In this document: positions 7,950 through 64,000 of the stretch, piece after piece
How positions within the stretch are numbered: position 1 is the first letter of the stretch
Layout: every line of letters begins with the position of its first letter
Assembly: GCF_009931435.1 (NCBI RefSeq)
Contig: NZ_CP043414.1
Strand: one strand, 5' to 3'
DNA from: Escherichia coli
GTDB taxonomy: Bacteria; Pseudomonadota; Gammaproteobacteria; Enterobacterales; Enterobacteriaceae
Length of the DNA stretch: 64,000 nucleotides
Made by a program: the position numbers and the translations under genes
The notes under the pieces: generated by a model
The model's input: the letters and a program-made list of their open reading frames with translations, nothing else
What the model was told of the DNA's origin: nothing
Database searches by the model: none

Positions 7950-8040
7950 GCAGTGCCGGATGCGGCGTGAACGCCTTATCCGGCCTACACATGCGCTCCC
8001 CGTAGGTCGGATAAGACGCGCCAGCGTCGCATCCGACATT
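7950..8040. repeat. REP/BIME palindromic element between convergent hypF and norW
   Basis: gccggatgcggcgtgaacgccttatccggcctaca...gtaggtcggataagacgcgccagcgtcgcatccgac, classic REP sequence. Confidence 0.55.
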
Positions 8041-8058
8041 TTGGGCACACTAGCCTGC

Positions 8059-9192
8059 CTACATCGGCAAGGTTTTCAACAATCCAAACGCCTCTTTCAT
8101 CCGATCCTCACTGACCACAAAAGCGCGAAGCTGGTCAGCATCGTCAACGCCGCGCGCCACCATTCCCTGGCTTTCGGTACAAATCTGCCAGCGCAAATCC
8201 CGACGCTGGGTTTCCCCTGCCAGATGCAGCGGTAATTCCGGCGTTTTGATTTTTACCAGCATGGCGGGAAGTTTCAGCGGTGCGTTTCCACCGAGCAAGT
8301 TCTTCGCCAGCACCATCGCGCTAAGTTGAATCGGCTGCAGGAACGGCAATACCTGACCGTTAATTTCTGCGCAATCGCCCAGCGCGTAAATATCGGCATT
8401 ACTGGTTTGCAGATAACTATCGACGCAAACGCCGCGATTAATCGTCAGCCCTGTACGTCGTGCCAGGGCGGTTTCCGGGCGCAGTCCGGTGGCGGCAATT
8501 ACCGCATCCACTTCGATGCTGCGCTGGCGGTCCAGCGTTGCCAGAATACCAGAATTCGTTTTTTCCAGCCCCTGCAACTGAGATTTCAACAGCAGATGAA
8601 CGCCCATCTCCGTCAACCGATGCTGCAAGCGGCTGCTTACTTCCGGTGGCATTAACGACGCCAGAATACTGGCAGCGTTGTCGATTAGCGTGACCGCTTT
8701 GCCTGCCCGACAAAAATCCATCGCCAGCTCGCTACCAATCAAGCCACCGCCAACAATCAACACGCGTCGGGCATCCCGCAGTTGCGTTTCACAGGCGCGA
8801 TACTCTTGCTGACTATTTAACGTCAGCATTAACTCACGCCCAGACACTGGCGGGACAAAGGCACTGGCACCAGTTGCCAGCACCAGCTTGTCGTATTGCC
8901 ACTGATTATTCTGGCTTTTCACCACATGGGCTTCGGCATCGATATCCGTCACCCAGGTGTGCGGAAACAGGTGCAGATTAAACTGCTCGGCAAATTCACC
9001 CGCCGTCTGGCGGGTGAGGTCATCGGCACGTTGCCCCTGGCTGATAACATGGCTAAGATCAGGTTTGTTGTACTCATCCATGCTGTCGGCGGCAATCAGG
9101 GTTAATGGAATACTGGCGTCCTGTTTGCGAATATTTTTCACCAGTTGGCGGGCGGCGAAGCCCGAACCAATGATCACAATGCCGTTGCTCAT
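8059..9192 (-). CDS. norW: NADH:flavorubredoxin oxidoreductase
   Basis: 377-aa ORF with N-terminal GxGxxA FAD/NAD-binding motif ([10 protein letters not shown]); overlaps norV by 4 nt. Confidence 0.93.
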
Positions 9193-10628
9193 TTTGCCTC
9201 CGATGCCAGTTCGTCAAAGACGTCTTTGCCAAGGGAGCATTCCGGGCACAGGAAGTTATCCGGGACTTCACTCCACGGCGTTCCTGGCGCAACGTCCTGC
9301 ATTGGCTCGCCTTTTGCCGGATCGTAAATCCACTGGCAGACGCTGCACTGCATCCGTGGGCCGAGGTCAGCCGTCGTGGTGGCACAGGTTTCTTCTTTAA
9401 CCACCGTATTCACCGTGCTCTGCGGCAGCGGCGAAAGCGCCCACTGACGGGCAATTTCACGACCGTGTTCACGGCATAACTCCAGCGCATCCTGGTCCGG
9501 TCGCCATTTGGCTTTCAGGCTAAGCGACATTTCGAAACCTGCATCCTGCAGGCGTGTGGAAAGACGATCCACCGCACCGCCGCTCCAGCCGTGAGAGCCG
9601 AAAGCACTGGCGCGTTTGTTACGGAAGCGTAATCCGGTCATCTCCTCCACCAGCCCGGCGATTTTAGGCATCATCACGTTATTCATCGTCGAAGTGCCGA
9701 CCAGCACGCCTTTTGAGCGGAAGACATTGGTCAGGATTTCGTTTTTATCGCTTCGGGCGACGTTGAAAATTTTCACCGCTACGCGCGGGTCGGTTTCCGC
9801 AATCCCCTGGGCGATAGCGTCAGCCATCATGCGGGTGTTATTCGACATGGTGTCGTAGAAAATGGTGATTCTGTCTTCCTGATAATCCGCCGCCCATTTC
9901 AGGTACAGCTCGACAATTTGCGTCGGGTTATCGCGCCACACTACACCGTGAGAGGTGGCAATCATATCGACCGGCAAGTTAAAGCCCAGGATCTCGGTGA
10001 TTTTCGGCGTTACCAGGCGGCTGAACGGTGTCAGGATATTGGCGTAGTAACGCTGACACTGCTCGAAAAGCTCGGTCTGATCCACTTCATCGTTGAAGAG
10101 ATGCTCGTCGCAGTAGTGCTGACCGAAAGCATCGTTACTGAACAGCACCGCGTCGCCCGTCAGGTAAGTCATCATGCTGTCCGGCCAGTGCAGCATTGGC
10201 GTTTCGACAAAAATGAGCTGTTTGCCGTTGCCGATATCCAGCGTGTCGCCGGTTTTCACCACGTTGAAATTCCACTCTGGATGATGGTGATGACCATTTA
10301 TTGAGTCGATAGCGTTGGCAGTACAATAGATCGGCGTATCGGGAATTTGCGCCATCAGTTCGGTCAGCGCCCCGGCGTGGTCCTCTTCAGCATGGTTAAT
10401 CACGATGTAATCGATATCCGCCAGATCGATTTCATTACGCAGGTTCTGCACAAATTCGCGGCTGAATTTATGGTCGACGGTGTCGATCAGCACGTTTTTT
10501 TCTTCGCGAATGAGGTAGCTGTTGTAGCTGCTGCCGCGCAGCGTTTTATATTCTGTACCGTGAAAATCACGCACTTCCCAGTCACGTTGACCAACCCAAT
10601 GAATGTTATTTTTCACCACAATAGACAT
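9189..10628 (-). CDS. norV: Anaerobic nitric oxide reductase flavorubredoxin
   Basis: 479-aa ORF with metallo-beta-lactamase-like, flavodoxin-like and C-terminal rubredoxin (CxxC...CPxC) regions. Confidence 0.93.
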
Positions 10629-10675
10629 AGCAACCTCAATTTATTCAGTGTGTTCTAAAAAGATGTCTTGCTAAT

Positions 10676-10691
10676 TGCAGATTGCGTGCCA
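10676..10691 (-). promoter_or_regulatory. Sigma-54 (-24/-12) promoter of norVW
   Basis: Reverse complement reads TGGCACgcaatCTGCA (GG-N10-GC spacing), about 45 nt upstream of the norV ATG. norV is known to be sigma-54/NorR dependent. Confidence 0.6.
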
Positions 10692-10746
10692 GTTTTTTAT
10701 CTGATTGTTTTTACTATATAAATAAAATTATGCTCATTAATGAGTA

Positions 10747-10802
10747 GTCAAAATGACTATCAATAAAATGGTCGATATGACAATATCTATAGTCAAATTG
10801 AC
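10747..10802. promoter_or_regulatory. Three NorR enhancer-binding sites (GT-N7-AC)
   Basis: GTCAAAATGAC (10747-10757), GTCGATATGAC (10771-10781) and GTCAAATTGAC (10792-10802) in the norR-norV intergenic region; matches the established NorR site consensus. Confidence 0.6.
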
Positions 10803-10814
10803 AGTGAGGCAAAG

Positions 10815-12329
10815 ATGAGTTTTTCCGTTGATGTGCTGGCGAATATCGCCATCGAATTGCAGCGTGGGATTGGTCATCAGGATCGTTTTCAGCGCCTGAT
10901 CACCACGCTGCGTCAGGTGCTGGAGTGCGATGCGTCTGCGTTGCTACGTTACGACTCGCGGCAGTTTATTCCGCTTGCCATCGACGGACTGGCAAAGGAT
11001 GTACTCGGTAGACGCTTTGCCCTGGAAGGTCATCCACGGCTGGAAGCGATTGCCCGCGCCGGGGACGTGGTGCGCTTTCCCGCAGACAGCGAATTGCCCG
11101 ATCCCTATGACGGTTTGATTCCCGGGCAGGAGAGTCTGAAGGTTCACGCCTGCGTTGGTCTACCGCTGTTTGCTGGACAAAACCTGATTGGCGCATTGAC
11201 GCTCGACGGGATGCAGCCCGATCAGTTCGATGTTTTCAGCGACGAGGAGTTACGGCTGATTGCCGCTCTGGCGGCGGGGGCGTTAAGCAATGCGCTGCTG
11301 ATTGAACAACTGGAAAGTCAGAATATGCTGCCGGGCGATGCCGCGCCATTTGAAGCGGTGAAAGAGACGCAGATGATCGGTCTGTCGCCAGGCATGACGC
11401 AATTGAAAAAAGAGATTGAGATTGTGGCGGCGTCCGATCTCAACGTCCTAATCAGTGGTGAGACGGGAACCGGTAAGGAATTGGTGGCGAAAGCGATTCA
11501 TGAAGCCTCGCCACGGGCGGTGAATCCGTTAGTCTATCTCAACTGTGCCGCACTGCCGGAAAGTGTGGCGGAAAGTGAGTTGTTCGGGCACGTGAAAGGG
11601 GCGTTTACTGGCGCTATCAGTAACCGCAGTGGAAAGTTTGAAATGGCGGATAACGGCACGCTGTTTCTGGATGAGATCGGCGAGTTGTCGTTGGCATTGC
11701 AGGCCAAGCTGCTGCGGGTGTTGCAGTATGGCGATATTCAGCGCGTTGGCGATGACCGCAGTTTGCGGGTCGATGTGCGCGTGCTGGCGGCGACTAACCG
11801 CGACTTGCGCGAAGAGGTGCTGGCAGGGCGATTTCGTGCTGACTTGTTTCATCGCCTGAGTGTGTTTCCGCTTTCGGTGCCGCCGCTGCGTGAGCGGGGT
11901 GATGACGTCATTCTGCTGGCGGGGTATTACTGCGAACAGTGCCGCCTGCGGTTGGGGCTTTCCCGCGTGGTGTTAAGTTCCGGGGCGCGGAATTTATTGC
12001 AACATTATAGTTTCCCGGGGAACGTGCGCGAACTGGAACATGCTATTCATCGGGCGGTGGTGCTGGCGAGAGCGACCCGCAGCGGCGATGAAGTGATTCT
12101 CGAGGCGCAACATTTTGCTTTTTCTGAGGTGACGTTGCCGACGGCAGAAGTGCCGATGGTGCCCGTTGTTAAGCAAAACCTGCGTGAAGCGACAGAAGCG
12201 TTCCAGCGTGAAACTATTCGCCAGGCGCTGGCACAAAATCATCACAACTGGGCTGCCAGCGCACGGATGCTGGAAACCGACGTCGCCAACCTGCATCGGC
12301 TGGCGAAACGTCTGGGGCTGAAGGATTAA
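10815..12329 (+). CDS. norR: Sigma-54-dependent NO-responsive transcriptional activator
   Basis: 504-aa ORF: GAF domain N-terminus, AAA+ sigma-54 activator core ([14 protein letters not shown]), C-terminal HTH. Confidence 0.93.
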
Positions 12330-13291
12330 ATAATCCCGGCCTGATAGAAATCCTGCAGGTTAATTGCGCCGGTAAGTTTGCCGTTTTCATCCACCACTGG
12401 TGCGGCGGTGATTTTGCGTTTCATCAGAACTTCTTTGGCGTCGATGGCGCGGCTTTGCGCCTGTAATGTGGTGCCGCCTGTCGTCATCGCTTCATTAACT
12501 GGCGTGGTGAGTGCGCCGCCGCCAACCAGCCAGCGACGTAAATCCCCGTCGGTAAAGACGCCTTGGACCTGTTGTTGAACGTCGCACACGGCTACCAGTC
12601 CCAGACCGGTGCGACTGAGTTCCAGCATCGCATCCATCACGCTGGCGGTTAACGCCACCTGCGGGATGGCGTCATCACGGCGCATCAGATGATGCACTTT
12701 GTTCAGCAAGCGAGCGCCCAGTGCCCCAGCTGGGTGGGATCGGGCAAAATCTTCTTCATTAAATCCGCGCGCCTGCATGACCGCCATCGCCAGCGCGTCG
12801 CCCATCATCAGGGTATTCACAGTGCTGGAGGTCGGTGCAAGATGCATCGGGCAGGCTTCGCGTTCTACAGAGATATCCAGCACCGCTTTCGCCGCCAGGC
12901 CCAGCGGTGATGTCGGTTTACCGGTCATCGCCAGCAGCGCGATAGATTTGTCTTCCAGACGCGGAATAATCAGATCCAGTTCCTTTGCGCCACCGGAGTA
13001 AGAGATAAACAGCATCACATCGCGGCTTTCAATCATCCCCAGATCGCCGTGCAGTGCTTCTGCCGGATGGACAAAAAAAGCAGGCGTGCCGGTACTGGCA
13101 AGCGTTGCGGCGATTTTCTTACCAATGTGGCCCGATTTGCCAATTCCCGAAACCACCACTTTGCCTTCGCAGTGCAGGATGATATTGGCGGCGCGAACAA
13201 AATCATCGCCCAGACGTTCTGGTAAACGGCTTGCTTCCTGCAACTCCAGCATTAACGTCTGACGTCCCGCGTTCAGTAGTGCTTCACTCAT
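12326..13291 (-). CDS. gutQ: D-arabinose 5-phosphate isomerase (SIS + tandem CBS domains)
   Basis: 321-aa ORF at the end of the gut operon; SIS domain ([14 protein letters not shown]) plus CBS pair. Confidence 0.9.
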
Positions 13292-14057
13292 TGCTCTCTC
13301 CGGTTATGATCACATCGATCCCTTTCTCTTCCAGCGCCTGACGAAACGCCGGATCGATACCTGCGTCGGTAATTAGCTTATCGACGCTTTCAAGACTGCA
13401 AACTACGTTGGGGCTTTTACGGCCAAACTTTGATGAGTCCGCCATCAAAATCACTTCGCGCGCGGCATTACACATCGCTTTACTGACGGTATAGACCTCG
13501 TTGAAGGTAGTTACGCCTGCATTGAGATCGATGCCATCGGTGCCCATAAACAATTTATCGAAGCTGAAATGTTCGAAGGCGTTCTCTGCCAGCTGCCCGT
13601 GAAATGAGGCCGATTTTTTACGAAACGTTCCGCCTGGCATCAGGATAGTTTGTTCGTTATCCAGTTCGGATAGCGCATTGACGATATGCAGGCTGTTGGT
13701 CATTACTGTGATGTTATTAAAGCGCGAGAGCAGGGGGACCATCTGCAAAACTGTACTGCCAGCATCAAGAATGATCGAATCGCCATCATGGATAAAACTA
13801 ACGGCAGCTTCTGCAATCAGCTCTTTCTTGTGGGTGTTGATGAGTGTTTTATGATCGATAGGCGGATCGGATTCCTCTTTATTCAACACCACTCCGCCAT
13901 AAGTACGAATGACGGTTCCTGCATGTTCCAGAATGACCAGATCTTTGCGAATGGTTGTGCCTGTGGTGTCAAAGTATTGCGCCAATTCTTCAACCGAGCA
14001 TTTACCCTGCTTTTGCAGATACTCCAGAATGGCGGCCTGACGCTGACGAGGTTTCAT
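13284..14057 (-). CDS. srlR: DeoR-family glucitol operon repressor
   Basis: 257-aa ORF with N-terminal DeoR HTH ([29 protein letters not shown]); synteny. Confidence 0.9.
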
Positions 14058-24774: not shown

Positions 24775-24867
24775 GGTGAGGTGGCCGAGAGGCTGAAGGC
24801 GCTCCCCTGCTAAGGGAGTATGCGGTCAAAAGCTGCATCCGGGGTTCGAATCCCCGCCTCACCGCCA
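24775..24867 (+). tRNA. serV: tRNA-Ser (anticodon GCU)
   Basis: 93-nt sequence GGTGAGGTGGCCGAGAGGCUGAAGG...CCGCCUCACCGCCA with long variable arm and anticodon loop CCUGCUAAG. Confidence 0.93.
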
Positions 24868-24870
24868 TTT

Positions 24871-24947
24871 GCATCCGTAGCTCAGCTGGATAGAGTACTC
24901 GGCTACGAACCGAGCGGTCGGAGGTTCGAATCCTCCCGGATGCACCA
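24871..24947 (+). tRNA. argV: tRNA-Arg (anticodon ACG)
   Basis: GCATCCGTAGCTCAGCTGGATAGAGTACTCGGCTACGAACCGAGCGGTCGGAGGTTCGAATCCTCCCGGATGCACCA; 3 nt after serV. Confidence 0.93.
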
Positions 24948-25082
24948 TATTCTACGAAATCTTCAGCAATGAAGGTGTCGAAGAGGTGGCGGTACTAACC
25001 GCAAGCACCAGGGAGGATAACGTTGCTTTAGCAACGGCCCGAAGGGCGAGCCGTAAGGCGAGTAATCCTCCCGGATGCACCA
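24948..25082 (+). repeat. Spacer repeat unit ending in a tRNA-Arg 3'-terminal fragment (aatcctcccggatgcacca)
   Basis: About 135-nt unit after argV; its last 19 nt duplicate the T-arm/acceptor 3' end plus CCA of tRNA-Arg without the rest of the tRNA. Confidence 0.6.
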
Positions 25083-25146
25083 TCTCTTACTTGATACGGC
25101 TTTAGTAGCGGTATCAAAAAATCTGCAGTAAAGTAAGTTTCCCGAT

Positions 25147-25223
25147 GCATCCGTAGCTCAGCTGGATAGAGTACTCGGCTACGAACCGAGCGGTCGGAGG
25201 TTCGAATCCTCCCGGATGCACCA
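25147..25223 (+). tRNA. argY: tRNA-Arg (anticodon ACG)
   Basis: Identical 77-nt tRNA-Arg copy; spacing to neighbours (276 and 140 nt) matches the argVYZQ arrangement as I recall it. Confidence 0.9.
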
Positions 25224-25286
25224 TCTCTTACTTGATATGGCTTTAGTAGCGATATCAATATCAGCAGTAAAGTAAGTTCTCCCGAT

Positions 25287-25363
25287 GCATCCGTAGCTCA
25301 GCTGGATAGAGTACTCGGCTACGAACCGAGCGGTCGGAGGTTCGAATCCTCCCGGATGCACCA
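25287..25363 (+). tRNA. argZ: tRNA-Arg (anticodon ACG)
   Basis: Identical 77-nt tRNA-Arg copy. Confidence 0.9.
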
Positions 25364-25498
25364 TATTCTCCGAAATCTTCAGCAATGAAGATATCGAAGA
25401 GGTAGCGGAATTAACCGCAGGCACCAGGAAGGATAACGTTGCTTTAGCAACGGCCCGAAGGGCGAGCCGCAAGGCGAGTAATCCTCCCGGATGCACCA
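25364..25498 (+). repeat. Spacer repeat unit ending in a tRNA-Arg 3'-terminal fragment
   Basis: Near-identical copy of the 24948-25082 unit after argZ. Confidence 0.6.
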
Positions 25499-25561
25499 TC
25501 TCTTATTTGATATGGCTTTAGTAGCGGTATCAATATCAGCAGTAAAGTAATTTCTCCCGAT

Positions 25562-25638
25562 GCATCCGTAGCTCAGCTGGATAGAGTACTCGGCTACGAA
25601 CCGAGCGGTCGGAGGTTCGAATCCTCCCGGATGCACCA
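25562..25638 (+). tRNA. argQ: tRNA-Arg (anticodon ACG)
   Basis: Identical 77-nt tRNA-Arg copy; last gene of the operon. Confidence 0.9.
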
Positions 25639-56191: not shown

Positions 56192-57460
56192 TTATTGATT
56201 AAAGGCGGCGTGTAAGGCATCCACACTACGTGCCGCTCGCAGCGTGCGTCCGGGGTTACTCTGGCTTGCCAACAGCGTTTGTACCTTGCTGACAATATGC
56301 GCACCAATAGGAATTGCTGATGTCGCTGCCGGGGAGGGCGCATTGCAGGTGTGGATCGTGCGCGGGGTAGTGACAAACAGAAAATCGTCAATCAGCTTAC
56401 CGTCCGGCGATACTGCCTGCGCACGCACACCGGCGGGCCAGGGCTGGAGATCGCTTAACGAAAGCCCGGGACAATACTTTTGCACCAGCCGCAGATAGCC
56501 GCTTTTGCACAGCGAGTTTTTCATCTCGCCCAGTCCTGAGCGTAGATGGTTTTGCAGCACCCGGCGAATCCCCGACGAGCCCAAAATCTCCAGCGTGTCG
56601 CTAAATGAGAAGTCGCGCTTGCGATAGCCTTCGCGTTTGAACGCCAGCACCGCGTTTGGCCCGACGGTCACGCTGCCGTCGATCATACGAGTGAGATGAA
56701 CGCCCAAAAATGGCATTGTCGGGTCGGGTATGGGGTAAATCAGGTGGTTAACAATCTGGTTATGCTCCGGCGCAAGGCGGAAATATTCGCCACGGAACGG
56801 GCAAATGATAAAGCCCGGCTTGAGGCCGAGCATTTTCACCAGCCGGTCAGCCATCAGCCCGGAACAGCTAATCAGCGTCGATGCTTCATATTCGCCGCCC
56901 TGACGGGTCCGTATTACCACGCCCTTTTTATGCTCATTGAGAGCGCTGACTTCGGCGTTATAAATAATCTCGCCGCCTCTGGCCTGGAAGATTTTTGCCA
57001 TCGCCGCTGTCACTTCGCGGTAGCTGACAATACCGCTGGACGGCACAAAAATGCCGCCCAGTCCGGTGATATTCGGTTCGTGCTCGCGTAGCTCCTCGGC
57101 GTTTAACCACTCGCGCTCGATCCCGTTCGCCGCCGTGCGTTCCCATAAGCCGCGCATCCGTTCCATTTCGAGTTCAGACGTGGCGACCAGCATCTTGCCG
57201 CAGTTGTCGTAGCGAATGCCGTTTTGCTCGCAAAAGGCTTTGGTGGCGCGGTTTCCCGCCAGGCAAAACTGCGCCTTCAGGCTGCCGGGTGTGTAATAGA
57301 CCCCGGCATGGATCACGCCGCTGTTGTGGCCCGTCTGGTGACAGGCCGGGCCGGACTCTTTTTCCAGCAACGCAATGCGGGCATCCGGATAGACATCAAT
57401 CAGTTGCATGGCGGTCGACATGCCAATGATGCCGCCGCCAATAATCACAAAATCATACAT
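56192..57460 (-). CDS. lhgO: L-2-hydroxyglutarate oxidase/dehydrogenase (FAD)
   Basis: 422-aa ORF with N-terminal FAD motif VIIGGGIIG. Confidence 0.93.
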   Translation of the reverse strand: MYDFVIIGGGIIGMSTAMQLIDVYPDARIALLEKESGPACHQTGHNSGVIHAGVYYTPGSLKAQFCLAGNRATKAFCEQNGIRYDNCGKMLVATSELEMERMRGLWERTAANGIEREWLNAEELREHEPNITGLGGIFVPSSGIVSYREVTAAMAKIFQARGGEIIYNAEVSALNEHKKGVVIRTRQGGEYEASTLISCSGLMADRLVKMLGLKPGFIICPFRGEYFRLAPEHNQIVNHLIYPIPDPTMPFLGVHLTRMIDGSVTVGPNAVLAFKREGYRKRDFSFSDTLEILGSSGIRRVLQNHLRSGLGEMKNSLCKSGYLRLVQKYCPGLSLSDLQPWPAGVRAQAVSPDGKLIDDFLFVTTPRTIHTCNAPSPAATSAIPIGAHIVSKVQTLLASQSNPGRTLRAARSVDALHAAFNQ

Positions 57461-57479
57461 CCGCTCGATTCCTTTGCGC

Positions 57480-58571
<1,092 letters not shown>

Positions 58572-58791
58572 TTATTGTGATCAAAAGCAACAAATTAGTA
58601 ACATTTAATGTAGGGTATTAAGGCAAAGGAGACAGGAAATGAATAACTAAAGCAACAGGTTAGGGAGAGCTACCATCAGAGAACAGATTATCTGGTCGAT
58701 AAAAAACAGTAAATGGCTTCACTGCAAAATGACCGTTAGTAAACTAAACATATCATCTGCCCCGTTTTAGCGGGGCAGATATAACATTAAA

Positions 58792-61044
58792 TTACAAATA
58801 GAAATAGTTCGGCGGTTCTCCTGTTTTCCCTAAAAGAAGAGCGCTGCGCCCAGGAATATTGATATTTAGAGCTCCGCCTCTAAGCGTAAATACTTTACCA
58901 GGGGGAATACTTTTGCGTGTATTATTATTATTAATGGTAATGCTATTACTCCCCATGTTTTTATATATTCCTGGTTGCAATTTGTTAGGCCAGGTACCTT
59001 CAACTTCTTCGTTTCCTTTATTTATTATAACTAGTCCATCATGAGGAGAGTGATTAATGTTCACAGAATCCCCACGACTAAAGGCCAGAACATTTTTAGT
59101 TGCAAATACACCCTCAAATGCGCTCCATATTCCTTCTTTATCTATATATAATGCGTGGAATTCATTGTAGAGCTGCTGATAGGTAGAGCAACCTTTATTA
59201 AGCCACGCCTCACCGCCGACACGAGTGGACCCATCATCATTTTTAATCTCAGTCGTTGATTTTAATACCTGACCATCCCAGTAAACTAAAGGCCTGCTGA
59301 ACGGGAGAGCGGCCATATATGCCATTGCTAATTGTTCATCTTGCTGATGGTTAAATAAAAAGTCATTGAAAAGATTACCATTGTTAGGGAAATCGTGGTT
59401 GATGTTAATCAATATCCGTCTTTCTGATGGGATGCTTGAGATTGCGGAACCCGGTTTTGATGCAAGGGTTTGGAGATCTCCACCGAATGAAAAGGCTTTT
59501 ATCGTCTTCATGAGCAATGAAAAATCAATGGCGCTTAAATCATCTCTTTCATAAAGCAGCGATGACATTTGTTGTTCATCTAACGGACAAGTTACCAGGT
59601 ATTCCATGTAATTCATAACAGCTTTTTTTTGATATTTTGGATTAAATAAATTTGTATTGTGCAACCGCTCATTATAATTTTTAAGCGGTGGGGTTATCGA
59701 CCTCTCTATTTGTTCATGTTTTGAGTGTTTTGCTGCATCATAACGTAAACCTCGTACGCCATATTTTCGCATTTCACGAACGTATTGATTTTGCAACATA
59801 ATAACCTGGTCACTTTTGGGTGTTGTTTTAGGCATTCCATTTAAACGCTTTTCTTTTAATGCATGGAGGTTTTCCCATTCATCCTTAGAAATATTATCTT
59901 TACTTGCTTCGAAGTCTTTTGCAGTGAGATGTATATCTTCTGGATGGATTTGGTCACGTTCTTTTGTTACTGGATCTATAATAAAGGGAATCAAGACCTG
60001 ACCTTGCCAATAGCCAGGGATACCACTTTCTATATCTTTACTAATCTTCGCTCGTATATCGGCAGAGGGATAATCCAGATCATTTTTACCACTTCCTCCG
60101 ATCCCCATAAAGTTAAATGTATAATCAGGAATGATATCGATGCCAAATTTTTTGGCATCTTTAACCAATGCGATAAAATCCTGCAAATCTCCCATTGGAT
60201 TATGAATGGTACAAAGATCTTCGGGTTGATAAGCGTGATACCAGTAACCTTTTTCTTCTTCAGGTGTTTCTGGTCCGTCGGCGCGGAAAGTTGTTACGGG
60301 AGGGATTTGTATATAACCATAATGGCAACGTGCAAACTCCGCCATATTTTTCCTGATTTGCTGGTAGGTGGCATTAAAAGCATGAAGAATCGCCTCGCCA
60401 GGTTTTTTGGGTGTGATGATTTCACATTGTGATTTCTGATCAGCAGTAAGAGATTTACGCTCAAGTGTTTGCCGTAGATGTTCTGGATTGATTAATATTT
60501 TAAATGTTTCTTGCTGGCCGGAAGGTGACGTTACGTTAATATTATATACATCAGCTGCCAGTTCATAGTCAGGAATGTTAATAGCATATGCAACATACTT
60601 ATCTTTTGGAGACGGTTTGTCAGATATAATGTGAGTGAAATGTTCAGCTGGACCATACTGATGAACACCGCTGTTATCACCTCTTTCAATCATTGTATCT
60701 CGTTGATAAACCCATGTTTTTCCTTCTCCTATCCTGTCTGGCGCTGTAATGCTACGCTGTGCTGCTTTATTCAACTCTCGGTAAGTTGTATCTGGAAAAA
60801 GGGAAATTTTATAATCGTTTTTTAACAGATCATTAATGACTTTTTCTGCGTGAAAAGTTGATATAATTTCTCTGTCTTTTAAATCCTGAGGATAAACTCC
60901 ACAAGAATTAATAATATTTGTTATACAGTTTAGATATTCTAATGTATTTAATTTGGAATTTAGATTCCCGTCAGTAATGTTCCATGATAACAATGTGGGG
61001 TTGTCGATAGGTAAATTTCTTGGTCCTGGTTTTATAGAAAACAT
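58792..61044 (-). CDS. ygaQ: GH13 alpha-amylase-family protein (intact; recalled as fragmented pseudogene in K-12)
   Basis: 750-aa uninterrupted ORF in an AT-rich region; contains alpha-amylase region-II-like motif GVRGLRYDAAKH. Confidence 0.75.
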   Translation of the reverse strand: MFSIKPGPRNLPIDNPTLLSWNITDGNLNSKLNTLEYLNCITNIINSCGVYPQDLKDREIISTFHAEKVINDLLKNDYKISLFPDTTYRELNKAAQRSITAPDRIGEGKTWVYQRDTMIERGDNSGVHQYGPAEHFTHIISDKPSPKDKYVAYAINIPDYELAADVYNINVTSPSGQQETFKILINPEHLRQTLERKSLTADQKSQCEIITPKKPGEAILHAFNATYQQIRKNMAEFARCHYGYIQIPPVTTFRADGPETPEEEKGYWYHAYQPEDLCTIHNPMGDLQDFIALVKDAKKFGIDIIPDYTFNFMGIGGSGKNDLDYPSADIRAKISKDIESGIPGYWQGQVLIPFIIDPVTKERDQIHPEDIHLTAKDFEASKDNISKDEWENLHALKEKRLNGMPKTTPKSDQVIMLQNQYVREMRKYGVRGLRYDAAKHSKHEQIERSITPPLKNYNERLHNTNLFNPKYQKKAVMNYMEYLVTCPLDEQQMSSLLYERDDLSAIDFSLLMKTIKAFSFGGDLQTLASKPGSAISSIPSERRILININHDFPNNGNLFNDFLFNHQQDEQLAMAYMAALPFSRPLVYWDGQVLKSTTEIKNDDGSTRVGGEAWLNKGCSTYQQLYNEFHALYIDKEGIWSAFEGVFATKNVLAFSRGDSVNINHSPHDGLVIINKGNEEVEGTWPNKLQPGIYKNMGSNSITINNNNTRKSIPPGKVFTLRGGALNINIPGRSALLLGKTGEPPNYFYL

Positions 61045-61604
61045 AATAAAGTTCCTCTAATGGTAGAGTAATATGGTGTATACGGAAACATAAAAATGTT
61101 TAATTGTTGTGAAAGTAATTGCAAACAGATGTCCTACTTTTATCCAATATTTATATGGAAAAGGATAATGCTTAAATCTGTTTTTTTAATTATCGATGTG
61201 GTCTGGAGAGGCAACTGTCAAAAATCGCTCATACGAAACTAATGATTAGCAGAATAAGATCTATGAAAGAATATATTGCTATATGAAGTTTATTTTTATG
61301 GGGTGAAAAGTAACAGATATCATAATGATGCGAAAACTCTTCAGTTAATGTAATAAACTTATATTATTAGATACAAAATCATTACAAAGTATCATTGAAT
61401 CGATGATAACTATAGATTGTGCTAATTATTAACATTTGCTTGTTGACTGCGAGTATCGACTTTGCGAATGGAGGTGGTGTCGGGTTTTATGTCGCATGTA
61501 TTGACGACCCAGGATGGATGAGAACGCATAAAAAATCTGTTATTTACATCATAAGATCATCATGTTTATTGCGTGGTTTATAAGTATTGTTATTGCATAC
61601 TCAA

Positions 61605-61680
61605 GGCCCTTTAGCTCAGTGGTTAGAGCAGACGACTCATAATCGCCTGGTCGCTGGTTCAAGTCCAGCAAGGGCCACCA
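61605..61680 (+). tRNA. ileY: tRNA-Ile2 (anticodon CAU, lysidine-modified type)
   Basis: GGCCCTTTAGCTCAGTGGTTAGAGCAGACGACTCATAATCGCCTGGTCGCTGGTTCAAGTCCAGCAAGGGCCACCA; cloverleaf with anticodon loop CTCATAA; adjacent to ygaQ as in K-12. Confidence 0.9.
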
Positions 61681-62431
61681 AATCAGCATTCTTGTATCAG
61701 GAAGAGTTAAGGGTACAAGGGGTACTCGATGGCGGTCTATATTTCACGACTAACGCCATTTCAAGGAAGAAGTGTGGTGGGTGGTTTCGAATGAGGGCTG
61801 GTGTTTTGGTACGTGGCACGCCACTGCAATGTATTTATCCATCAGTACTCATTCAAAAGTACCTGGAAAAAATGCCCGCTATGCCAAGCGGGCAAATTGC
61901 TTACATGTGGAATTAAGTAATTAACGATAAAGCCAGAGTATTATCATTTATTATACCCCTTCATTTAATCAGGTTAATTACTCAAATCACTGAACTATTC
62001 TCTGTTCGCTCACTTATGCTGAGTGAGTACCACGACCAATGTATGTAGAACAATGCCGTAGAGTAAGGATGAAATGTCTCTGCCACGCCTTAAACATCTA
62101 CTACTGACTAGAACCGCCGTCGCATGCAGAAGAGTCTTGTGAGCGTTACAGGAGTCTGGCTTTGCTCATTAATCAACGCTATTTAGATATAAATTTCTAA
62201 TACTCGAAAAACGATTTTCACAAATAAATTATAACGGATGGTTTTTATCATACAGCGAAATAACCTTTTGTTTATTAAATTTAACATTCCTGTGCTAAAT
62301 TAATTAAAAGTACCATGTATAGCATATGAATCTGTTAATGCCAGCAATTGTCTCAAATGAGCGATTTTTTATAGTGACTAACAATAATAACATTAAAAAT
62401 AGTCATGTAGACATTAACTGAGGAAAAGACA

Positions 62432-63886
62432 ATGTTAGTTAGTAAAAGCAACGAAATTAACACTAGCACATTTATAAATAGTGGAAATTGTAATGAAAGA
62501 AAATCTTCTAAATCCATGGAGTTACTAGCTTATAGTATTATAAAATTAATTTGTAAAGAAGCTGCCTCAGGGACGTATAACGGTGCTCTTGAAATTTTAC
62601 AAAAAATGATGTCTGAATGTAAATATCATGAAGGCAATGCTTTTGTCATTATGGGAGCCGGAGAACAATTAAAACGTATTAAATATGATGCTAATGAAAA
62701 TAAATTAAAAGTATACAACGTACACTTTGATAATAATCAAGAGTTAGTTGCTGATGGTGAGCCTGACGTAGTATTTTTAAAAAAAACGGTGTGGGAAGAC
62801 CTTCTCGTTAAACTAAATCTGGAGAACAAAGAAAATGCGGTTTCTGAAATTAACCTGTCATCTAATAAAAATAATGTTGATCAGTTTATTGAATGCGCTA
62901 AGAGAAATGAACAGACCCTATTCGACAATATAAGAAAAAGTGATTTTCATGTTGCTTCACTTCAGCCAGGTAGAACGCGTAGTGTTATTTCAGAAACGCC
63001 GCCAAATGACTGTATGGAATCACCTAATTTATATGAAAACCACACAGATAAGGTTTCAACTGTAACTAAAAATTCTCAGCAAGTTAAAGGTCACTATGGA
63101 GATAAGTTGAAAGAAATGCAGTTGTTCCTCAACCAGATGAGCAATGCACTTCAACAGGATTCATCTTTGTTAGAGTCAAAGGAACACACCATAGATATTC
63201 AAGAAAAAACGAATAAGTTTGTGCAGCATTTTCAGCGGGTATTATTTGATAAAAATGGAAGGTCATCAGAGTTTCTACTTAATTTTTATGAGTGTTGCTA
63301 TAAGTTTTTACCAAGAGCGCAGCCTCAAGATAAAATCGATAGCTATAATTCAGCACTGCAAGCTTTTTCCATCTTTTGTTCATCTACGTTCACACATAAT
63401 AATGTAGGGTTTAATTTCAAATTATTTCCAGAAGTCAAACTGTCTGGAGGAGATCTTGAAACGGTATTCAAATACAAAAATGGCAATTTTGTCTGGGAGA
63501 TAGCCAGAATTAAAATTACTCTCCCAAAAGAAGAGGGTGGTTTATATAATTTAGGTGGATTGGACTTTAAGGGGTGCTTCTTTTCTGGACAGAACTTCAG
63601 TAACTATGATATTAAATATGTGAACTGGGGGACGTCATTGTTTGATGTTGATACTCCGTGTATTTTTAATACGCCTGCTAACAATGAGAGTTATGAAAAA
63701 TCATTAAAGCCTGTGAGCGAAAACGGTTTAAATGGAGTCTTATCTGATCGTAATAAAAAAATAAAAATGATCACGGGCGTGGCACCATTCGATGGTATTT
63801 CATCTATGGATGATGACTTTGATGATAGTTCCTCTGAGGATGAGCCCGTTGAGAATAGTCCTGTTGTGACTAGGCCCCTTGTATAA
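62432..63886 (+). CDS. Hypothetical protein, AT-rich (about 30% GC by eye), probable horizontally acquired island gene
   Basis: 484-aa ORF 750 bp downstream of the tRNA-Ile 3' end. Contains about six tandem 5-residue repeats with hydrophobic centre (GLDFK GCFFS GQNFS NYDIK YVNWG TSLFD) and an acidic Ser/Asp/Glu-rich C-terminal tail. Confidence 0.55.
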   Translation: MLVSKSNEINTSTFINSGNCNERKSSKSMELLAYSIIKLICKEAASGTYNGALEILQKMMSECKYHEGNAFVIMGAGEQLKRIKYDANENKLKVYNVHFDNNQELVADGEPDVVFLKKTVWEDLLVKLNLENKENAVSEINLSSNKNNVDQFIECAKRNEQTLFDNIRKSDFHVASLQPGRTRSVISETPPNDCMESPNLYENHTDKVSTVTKNSQQVKGHYGDKLKEMQLFLNQMSNALQQDSSLLESKEHTIDIQEKTNKFVQHFQRVLFDKNGRSSEFLLNFYECCYKFLPRAQPQDKIDSYNSALQAFSIFCSSTFTHNNVGFNFKLFPEVKLSGGDLETVFKYKNGNFVWEIARIKITLPKEEGGLYNLGGLDFKGCFFSGQNFSNYDIKYVNWGTSLFDVDTPCIFNTPANNESYEKSLKPVSENGLNGVLSDRNKKIKMITGVAPFDGISSMDDDFDDSSSEDEPVENSPVVTRPLV

Positions 63887-64000
63887 AGTTCTAAAAGCAG
63901 TTTTCAATGATAAATAAATGGCGATTTTTACAAAGAGATAATAACGTAGATTGAAATAATATGTATTATTGATTGAGTAAACGGGATTATTCTTCACACT

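Follow-up and report, generated by a model that had tools for sequence, protein, structure and literature searches.

A 64,000-nucleotide stretch of the Escherichia coli contig NZ_CP043414.1 (RefSeq assembly GCF_009931435.1), hereafter the window, ends in AT-rich DNA that contains the tRNA gene ileY and, 751 bp downstream of it, the gene ypjCB. The window corresponds to the gab-csiD/glaH region of E. coli, and its gene order was nrdH...stpA...csiR-gabPTD-lhgO-glaH, followed by an alpha-amylase-family gene (ygaQ/ygaR type), ileY and ypjCB. A preliminary description made from the letters alone had reported an open reading frame (ORF) of 484 amino acids (aa) at the end of the window. This ORF was confirmed at 62432..63886 on the plus strand, with 114 bp from its stop codon to the window end, and it is ypjCB, a catalogued gene that is named in K-12 and covered by two Pfam DUFs and a curated NCBI family. 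The product matched NCBIfam NF050179 over its full length (residues 1–484) with 962.3 bits against a cut-off of 650, while the Pfam families DUF5507 and DUF5508 covered aa 1–160 (6e-75) and aa 234–484 (7e-142), respectively. The following features were delineated in and directly upstream of the gene, some of them from the ratio of nonsynonymous to synonymous polymorphism (pN/pS).

62432..63886, plus strand: ypjCB coding sequence (CDS), intact, 484 aa (NCBIfam NF050179, Pfam DUF5507 and DUF5508)
62432..62515, plus strand: N-terminal tail, aa 1–28, Ser/Asn/Thr-rich, basic, hypervariable (pN/pS, composition, alignment)
63057..63161, plus strand: 35-codon segment, CDS nt 626–730, about aa 209–243, absent from K-12/O157-type alleles
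63545..63649, plus strand: pentapeptide-like block of seven pentads, aa 372–406 (sequence, shuffles, pN/pS)
63803..63847, plus strand: acidic Ser-rich tail motif SMDDDFDDSSSEDEP, aa 458–472, in the predicted disordered C-terminus
62348..62375, plus strand: promoter-like site TTGTCT-16-TATAGT, about 57 nt 5' of the ypjCB start (consensus scan, at chance level overall)

An AGGA Shine-Dalgarno motif was located about 9 nt ahead of the ypjCB ATG. The historic two-gene naming ypjC/ypjB in K-12 arose because an internal stop, present in K-12 (DH1), splits the gene; the pseudogene carries the locus tags b2650 and b2649, and the counterpart in O157 Sakai is ECs_3517, annotated as "ypjB". At the DNA level the window gene, a long 484-aa intact form, was 99.6% identical to that of strain N96, and its product shared 78%–94% amino-acid identity with other alleles. 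The allele group of the window is a minority one: 528 of 3174 records reach a DNA identity of at least 95%. Literature searches under DUF5507, DUF5508 and ypjCB returned nothing, and those under ECs3517, Z39xx and b2650 nothing relevant.

Anatomy of the YpjCB protein

YpjCB has an isoelectric point (pI) of 5.35. Neither a signal peptide nor a membrane segment was found in it (maximum 19-residue hydropathy 0.87). The ypjB gene has been listed among "membrane proteins" (PMC7414163), a label that the sequence, with no hydrophobic segment, does not support. The N-terminal tail is composed to 50% of Ser, Thr, Asn and Gln and has a pI of 9.2. The acidic C-terminal tail noticed earlier was confirmed: aa 450–484 carry a net charge of -9, the core MDDDFDD is conserved, and the tail was modeled with a predicted local distance difference test score (pLDDT) below 35 and with no secondary structure. 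Searches of Pfam, PADLOC and PDB yielded no catalytic family, in agreement with the earlier statement that no enzymatic motif is recognizable. PADLOC-DB gave no family at E<=1, so YpjCB does not represent a known defence system in that database. The matching PHROG family, phrog_30093 (function unknown), is the same family and therefore uninformative.

The preliminary description had pointed to six consecutive five-residue repeats with a central hydrophobic residue at about aa 375–405. Such repeats do occur, and they number seven and span aa 372–406: YNLGG, LDFKG, CFFSG, QNFSN, YDIKY, VNWGT and SLFDV. The third residue of the pentads is L, F, F, F, I, W and F, respectively, and the second is D or N in five of the seven. 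When the protein was shuffled 20,000 times, seven or more consecutive hydrophobic residues with period five arose with p of about 0.05, and a score combining the run with the D/N positions, defined post hoc after the pattern had been seen, had p of about 0.0016. The block was nearly invariant across 26 alleles.

A repeat fold received no support from the approaches used (Pfam, PDB profiles, AlphaFold2 and Foldseek), an outcome that the preliminary description itself had named as counting against its reading. None of the Pfam pentapeptide models matched YpjCB at E<=10. A PDB profile search with aa 296–450 gave Qnr as the best repeat-protein match, in the repeat register with E = 0.76, and nothing else of note, whereas a phmmer search of YpjCB against all PDB chains returned only chance nanobody matches (E of about 1). 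The full-length AlphaFold2 model, built on a shallow alignment of 26 alleles, had a pLDDT of 37.5, with only residues 330–410 reaching about 60. It contained helices at 23–61, a four-stranded sheet at 70–115, helices at 214–321, three long strands at 330–363 and, after residue 363 and up to 411, short strands about every five residues. These periodic short strands were not reproduced in a model of aa 296–450 (16 alleles, pLDDT 57.8). Three Foldseek searches against PDB and AFDB50 found significant matches only to models of E. coli YpjCB and no repeat protein. An actin-like ATPase/RNase H fold was considered and rejected, as its Foldseek matches (E>0.02, template modeling score <0.3) covered only the three-stranded beta-meander.

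The pentads form a genuine, conserved pattern and make up the most constrained segment of the protein; a pentapeptide beta-helix is not demonstrated by them, and seven pentads allow at most about 1.75 coils. In the provisional layout suggested by the models, the hypervariable N-terminal tail is followed by the small alpha/beta domain DUF5507 and a disordered linker; then come a helical region, the beta-meander, the pentapeptide-like segment and the acidic disordered tail.

Distribution and evolution of ypjCB

A megablast search with window positions 61400–64000 detected the ypjCB locus in 3173 of 5426 complete E. coli genomes; the remaining 2253 were without it. Among the matches listed from 5.8 billion clustered proteins, all of the 120 best with a named source belonged to E. 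coli or Shigella. An exhaustive phmmer search of 1.84 billion representatives at 50% identity recovered one full-length cluster and fragments of the same family. A scan of 100,044 species, represented by a genome each, with two short peptide patterns, which distant relatives would escape, gave a single match, a contig of a metagenome-assembled genome (MAG) consisting of 100% K-12 DNA. The synteny around ypjCB was the same in every locus fetched. The gene is therefore a species-restricted orphan of E. coli, including the divergent lineage of the window.

The MAG contig, DEQI01000374.1 from "Planococcaceae bacterium UBA3370", is 2.8 kb long and 100% identical to K-12 across ileY-ypjCB. It is almost certainly laboratory-strain contamination, and the presence of ypjCB in another species, for which it was the sole match, was rejected. 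A phage or plasmid origin was rejected too: tblastn against phages returned zero ypjCB matches, and the plasmid matches comprised mislabelled records of chromosome size and a K-12 fragment of 358 bp in an IncHI2 plasmid. This fragment, 100% identical to K-12 ypjC, is located in an unannotated stretch of the conjugative plasmid NZ_MN732922.1 (7001–7360).

The G+C (GC) content was 34.5% in the ypjCB CDS (29.9% at third codon positions), compared with 52.1% in window positions 1–58600. The sharp drop relative to the backbone described earlier was thus found, while the earlier estimate of about 30% was slightly low, the value for 61681–64000 being 35.0%. Being AT-rich, missing from a large share of E. 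coli genomes and without relatives beyond the species, ypjCB is not a conserved core gene of normal composition, the finding that the preliminary description had held to be incompatible with its proposal. Its reading as an AT-rich accessory gene of horizontally acquired appearance was supported.

Selection was estimated by the Nei-Gojobori method for 12 alleles. The median ratio of nonsynonymous to synonymous substitution rates (dN/dS) was 0.70 for ypjCB (dN up to 0.12), 0.14 for the neighboring alpha-amylase-family gene and 0.04 for glaH. Within ypjCB, values differed strongly between regions; they are given below for intact alleles, and each is based on few sites and ignores recombination.

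aa 1–28 (N-terminal tail): pN/pS 4.3
aa 29–120 (DUF5507 core): pN/pS 0.50
aa 296–330: pN/pS 0.36
aa 331–365 (beta-meander): pN/pS 1.9
aa 366–411 (pentapeptide-like segment): pN/pS 0.17, lowest in the gene
aa 450–484 (acidic tail): pN/pS 1.26

As many as 5.3% of the possible substitutions in the AT-rich ypjCB frame would create stops, yet two intact alleles separated by 150–160 differences are both open, for which the neutral probability is about 2e-4. Because the frame has stayed open across so many differences, ypjCB is a real protein-coding gene; its constraint is weak and patchy, and it is often lost. Among 18 carriers inspected, ypjCB was annotated as intact in nine and as a pseudogene in nine. 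The lesions, stops or frameshifts, are independent, with first stops at different codons. Common alleles of the K-12/O157 type carry an in-frame deletion of 105 nt (about aa 209–243), which leaves 449 aa (an intact CDS of 1350 nt).

The alignment of the 26 alleles was visibly mosaic. To some ordinary E. coli the window ypjCB had a synonymous divergence (dS) of only 0.05, whereas the flanking glaH had a dS of about 0.35 to the same strains, which points to exchange of ypjCB alleles between lineages. Unlike the backbone, the window allele was 96% shared with some ordinary E. coli. The backbone itself (e.g., 8000–14000 and 56500–58655) shared about 94%–95.5% identity with the majority of complete E. 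coli genomes and 99% with two isolates from animals, N96 and R32_14_1F. A 6-kb core segment, norR-norV, shared about 95.5% identity with most E. coli genomes and 99.1% with one goat isolate. Given this backbone divergence and the glaH dS, the window comes from a divergent Escherichia lineage still labelled E. coli, possibly a cryptic clade.

The glaH-ssrA block and the tRNA gene ileY

The surroundings of ypjCB in the window comprise the following features.

58656..64000, strand not assigned: visible part of an AT-rich accessory block (GC drop; homology with NC101 stops at 58655)
58792..61044, minus strand: alpha-amylase-family gene (ygaQ/ygaR type), intact, 750 aa, 37.8% GC
61605..61680, plus strand: tRNA-Ile2 (anticodon CAU), ileY (ARAGORN, Rfam 67.4 bits, RefSeq orthologous loci)
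61635..61683, plus strand: 49-bp core of the attachment site of P2-like prophages in other strains, at the tRNA 3' end (strain comparison)
61864..61977, minus strand: most conserved stretch of the spacer between the tRNA gene and ypjCB, candidate RNA of about 80 nt (diversity, consensus scan, fold z-score)

The preliminary description had placed the onset of the GC drop at the tRNA gene and had regarded ypjCB as cargo of an island inserted there. Neither point held. The GC profile falls from about 53% to about 38% at 58400–58800, 3 kb before the tRNA gene, and 58600–61604 is already at 36.4%; the block begins at about 58656, upstream of the tRNA gene, and contains it. In related strains it runs for about 5.5 kb beyond the window, with recombinase and ATPase fragments and the autotransporter gene ypjA, and ends beside the tmRNA gene ssrA. 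In N96 ypjCB is followed by a 165-nt recombinase fragment, an ATPase fragment and ypjA. The order ileY, ypjCB, recombinase fragment, ypjA was seen on its upstream side in the window and on its downstream side in N96 and 10 other loci.

In the B2-like strain NC101 the alpha-amylase-family gene, ileY, ypjCB, the recombinase fragment pin', the ATPase fragment and ypjA are all missing, and glaH is directly followed by ssrA. Homology with the window ends at 58655 and resumes just past ypjA, with 333 unrelated bp between (fetched locus L007, 16156–16490). The variable unit is therefore the whole block of about 10.8 kb between glaH and ssrA, ileY included, and it should be annotated as such and not as an island inserted into ileY. 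All genomes whose match ends at window position 58655 lack the block too. Strains of the NC101 type have no ileY at the glaH-ssrA locus. In E. coli W and B, ileY was lost through deletions mediated by insertion sequences (PMC3032704).

The block adjoins the 3' side of ssrA, the classical integration site of CP4-57 in K-12. Past ypjA, N96 carries a gene for an anti-phage dCTP deaminase and a P2-like prophage (fetched locus L001, 23525–25282), which marks the glaH-ssrA interval as a defence and prophage hot spot. The alpha-amylase-family gene has a dN/dS of 0.14, which indicates purifying selection on it, and contains 20 ATA codons; its product has no obvious N-terminal signal peptide. It is a pseudogene in K-12 and O157, independently of the ypjCB status. 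This gene belongs to the block and has no functional coupling to ypjCB.

ARAGORN called 61605–61680 as a Met tRNA with the anticodon CAT, while the RefSeq orthologue in every homologous locus fetched is tRNA-Ile (ileY). An Rfam scan of 58400–64000 found this tRNA and nothing else. The earlier view of the tRNA 3' end as an integration site was borne out by P2-like prophages located exactly at the ileY 3' end in strains MSB1_8G and PRO_A-1374. In MSB1_8G (L005) a P2-like prophage with an integrase separates ileY from ypjCB, and only 49 bp (window positions 61635–61683) are duplicated beside ypjCB, next to the phage integrase. In PRO_A-1374 (L008), 61683 is the last homologous position, and P2-like late genes come next. 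The gene ypjCB lies outside the P2-like prophages inserted at ileY. Downstream of ypjCB, where the preliminary description had suggested looking for an integrase and a direct repeat of the tRNA 3' end, only a Pin-like serine-recombinase pseudogene fragment of 147–168 nt was present, and no such repeat was found in the N96, L002 and L003 loci. A search for repeats at the block junctions and for a tRNA-derived direct repeat bounding the block found none. Composition and presence/absence polymorphism are as expected of a tRNA-associated island, but the tRNA gene is located inside the variable block and not at a conserved edge.

In the spacer between ileY and ypjCB, nucleotide diversity was 0.015–0.026 at 61864–61977, compared with 0.05–0.16 around it. 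The minus strand contains a terminator-like hairpin at 61894–61873 followed by a T-run, about 55 nt 3' of a promoter-like site (10 of 12 consensus positions) at 61977–61950. An unannotated RNA of about 80 nt may be encoded here, with no Rfam match and a fold z-score of only -2.06.

Elsewhere in the window, 24775–25638 contains the serV-argV/Y/Z/Q tRNA cluster with one tRNA-Ser(GCT) and four tRNA-Arg(ACG); a tRNA-Arg(TCG) called by ARAGORN on the minus strand (24891–24962) overlaps this cluster and looks spurious. The mechanically listed ORF of glaH/csiD at 57480–58562 (minus strand) has 360 aa, whereas the gene annotated in relatives has 978 nt (325 aa) and starts with MNALTAV, so that the 35 codons at the start of the listed ORF are probably untranslated.

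Possible roles of YpjCB

We assign a probability of roughly 45% to the tentative reading that YpjCB is a non-enzymatic soluble binding or adaptor protein that is conditionally useful and expressed at a low level under H-NS/Hha silencing. The pentapeptide-like segment and the preceding helices would form a constrained interaction core, while the N-terminal tail, the beta-meander and the acidic tail would vary freely or under diversifying pressure. H-NS/Hha-type silencing, which acts on AT-rich DNA, probably holds expression down, and since the benefit would be conditional, the gene would be lost repeatedly. In K-12, binding of Hha (a partner of H-NS) to the ileY/ypjC region and a 9-fold change in ypjC transcription were recorded (PMC2408971).

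Several points weigh against this reading. Its biochemical part was derived from the protein anatomy and substitution patterns only, and the domain layout is provisional because the structure predictions were of low confidence. Between deep intact alleles the gene-wide dN/dS of 0.70 is not significantly below 1, and the regional pN/pS values carry the restrictions stated with them. The commonest alleles are without 35 residues that the long form keeps invariant, which is odd for a well-constrained protein. A pathogen colonised the biofilm of a K-12 delta-ypjC strain to a greater extent, and no ypjC mutant of enteroaggregative E. coli 55989 could be obtained (PMC3646849). The former, the sole phenotype, is hard to assign to the protein because the K-12 gene is a pseudogene beside ileY, and it may reflect a neighboring effect.

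A rival reading would have ypjCB as a functionless, decaying relic of an old mobile element, together with the Pin-like recombinase and ATPase fragments, that is drifting to loss. Half of the sampled carriers have pseudogenes with differing lesions; the dN/dS of 0.70, recalculated with intact alleles only (window versus O157), has a bootstrap confidence interval of 0.48–1.05 that reaches 1; the common allele has lost 35 codons in frame; the block is missing in B2-like NC101; and broken recombinase and ATPase genes lie immediately 3' of ypjCB. We nevertheless consider this explanation unlikely. The frame is open over about 155 differences, pN/pS falls to 0.17 in the pentapeptide-like segment and to 0.36–0.50 in two others, and intact alleles are found on hundreds of contigs each and also in a lineage that differs from typical E. 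coli by about 4.5%.

YpjCB could alternatively be a type III secretion substrate or an effector-like protein, functionally analogous to EspX or PipB2. Its N-terminus would then serve as the secretion signal, a short beta-solenoid would bind host proteins, and the acidic SSSEDE would act as a host casein-kinase-2-type or acidic-cluster motif. This acidic serine cluster may be read as a motif of eukaryotic type. The composition and hypervariability of the basic N-terminal 28 residues agree with this idea, as do the size and layout, which resemble EspX1 (473 aa), and the gene is intact in O157:H7 and dead in K-12. On the contrary, a relationship to EspX was rejected (BLASTP best E = 3.0; hhalign profile-profile probability 0.12%), no chaperone or secretion gene adjoins ypjCB in the fetched loci, and the literature on ECs3517 or ypjC/ypjB makes no mention of secretion. 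Intactness does not track pathotype in the sample: commensal and urine isolates carry an intact gene, while STEC17-190 and O157:H16 Santai carry a broken one. The richness in N, S and K is partly a by-product of the 35% GC content. An effector function is therefore improbable.

Somewhat more doubtful still is a conflict protein, i.e., an anti-phage or anti-mobile-element sensor or an immunity-like protein shaped by an arms race in an integration and defence hot spot. The gene lies between ileY and ssrA, integration hot spots that are both occupied by prophages in various strains, the anti-phage dCTP deaminase gene is a few kb away in N96, and mosaic alleles, segments with pN/pS above 1 and polymorphism in both presence and integrity would suit such a role. 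Nevertheless, beyond the empty PADLOC result, Pfam and PDB searches revealed no effector-type domain (nuclease, NTPase, TIR or protease), and known single-gene defence systems are spread across taxa, while ypjCB is confined to one species and one locus. A bolder version, about as improbable as the effector reading, would have YpjCB found a species-specific arms-race class, host-delivered or phage-facing, in which a beta-solenoid of less than two coils forms a conserved binding core and the rest diversifies. If true, both the fold and the effector-like or defence-like family would be new, and homology searches would not see the family.

A DNA mimic of the Qnr/MfpA type, whose beta-helix and acidic tail would imitate DNA and bind gyrase or a restriction enzyme, is very improbable: the best non-antibody PDB profile match was Qnr in the repeat register and the C-terminal tail is strongly acidic, but Qnr/MfpA-type mimics are dimers with a helix of about eight coils, whereas YpjCB has only seven pentads (less than two coils), a nearly neutral repeat segment (aa 326–415, net charge -1), no Pfam pentapeptide match, no beta-helix in either AlphaFold2 model and no repeat protein among its Foldseek matches.

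With the binding or adaptor protein as the preferred reading, ypjCB is a tidy example of an orphan confined to E. coli: AT-rich, probably H-NS/Hha-silenced, mosaic and broken in half of the sampled copies. The feature that stands out is the strongly conserved pentapeptide-like core set against a fast-evolving, often broken remainder. If this segment is a working interaction module, the gene would offer a tractable case of the origin, retention and loss of a lineage-specific protein.

Pentapeptide-repeat profiles describe tandem A[D/N]LXX units, usually at least eight. With the canonical proteins of this kind (PF00805 clan; Qnr, MfpA, PipB2, SopA/NleL) YpjCB shares seven x-[D/N]-[L/F/I/W]-x-x pentads, but it is too short for two full coils and has neither a Pfam match nor a predicted beta-helix. 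EspX1 (ECs_0025 of O157 Sakai) is likewise an AT-rich, Escherichia-restricted orphan, encoded in a small chromosomal islet, with a degenerate pentapeptide-like block in its C-terminal third that matches Pfam Pentapeptide_4 only with E = 0.15. YpjCB differs from it in having fewer pentads, an acidic tail absent from EspX1, and no effector annotation or literature; judged from the sequences, the two proteins are alike in style but do not belong to one family. Unlike the tRNA and tmRNA islands of E. coli (CP4-57 at ssrA, P2-like elements at ileY), the block has no intact integrase or flanking tRNA-end repeat, and its tRNA gene is internal; like them, it is anomalous in composition, variable and equipped with a recombinase remnant, adjoins ssrA and surrounds a tRNA gene. 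Within the YpjCB family, K-12 has the internal stop and the 35-codon deletion and O157 has the deletion, whereas the window allele is long and intact, its product matches the curated model over the full length above the cut-off, and the position between ileY and the pin' fragment and ypjA is kept.

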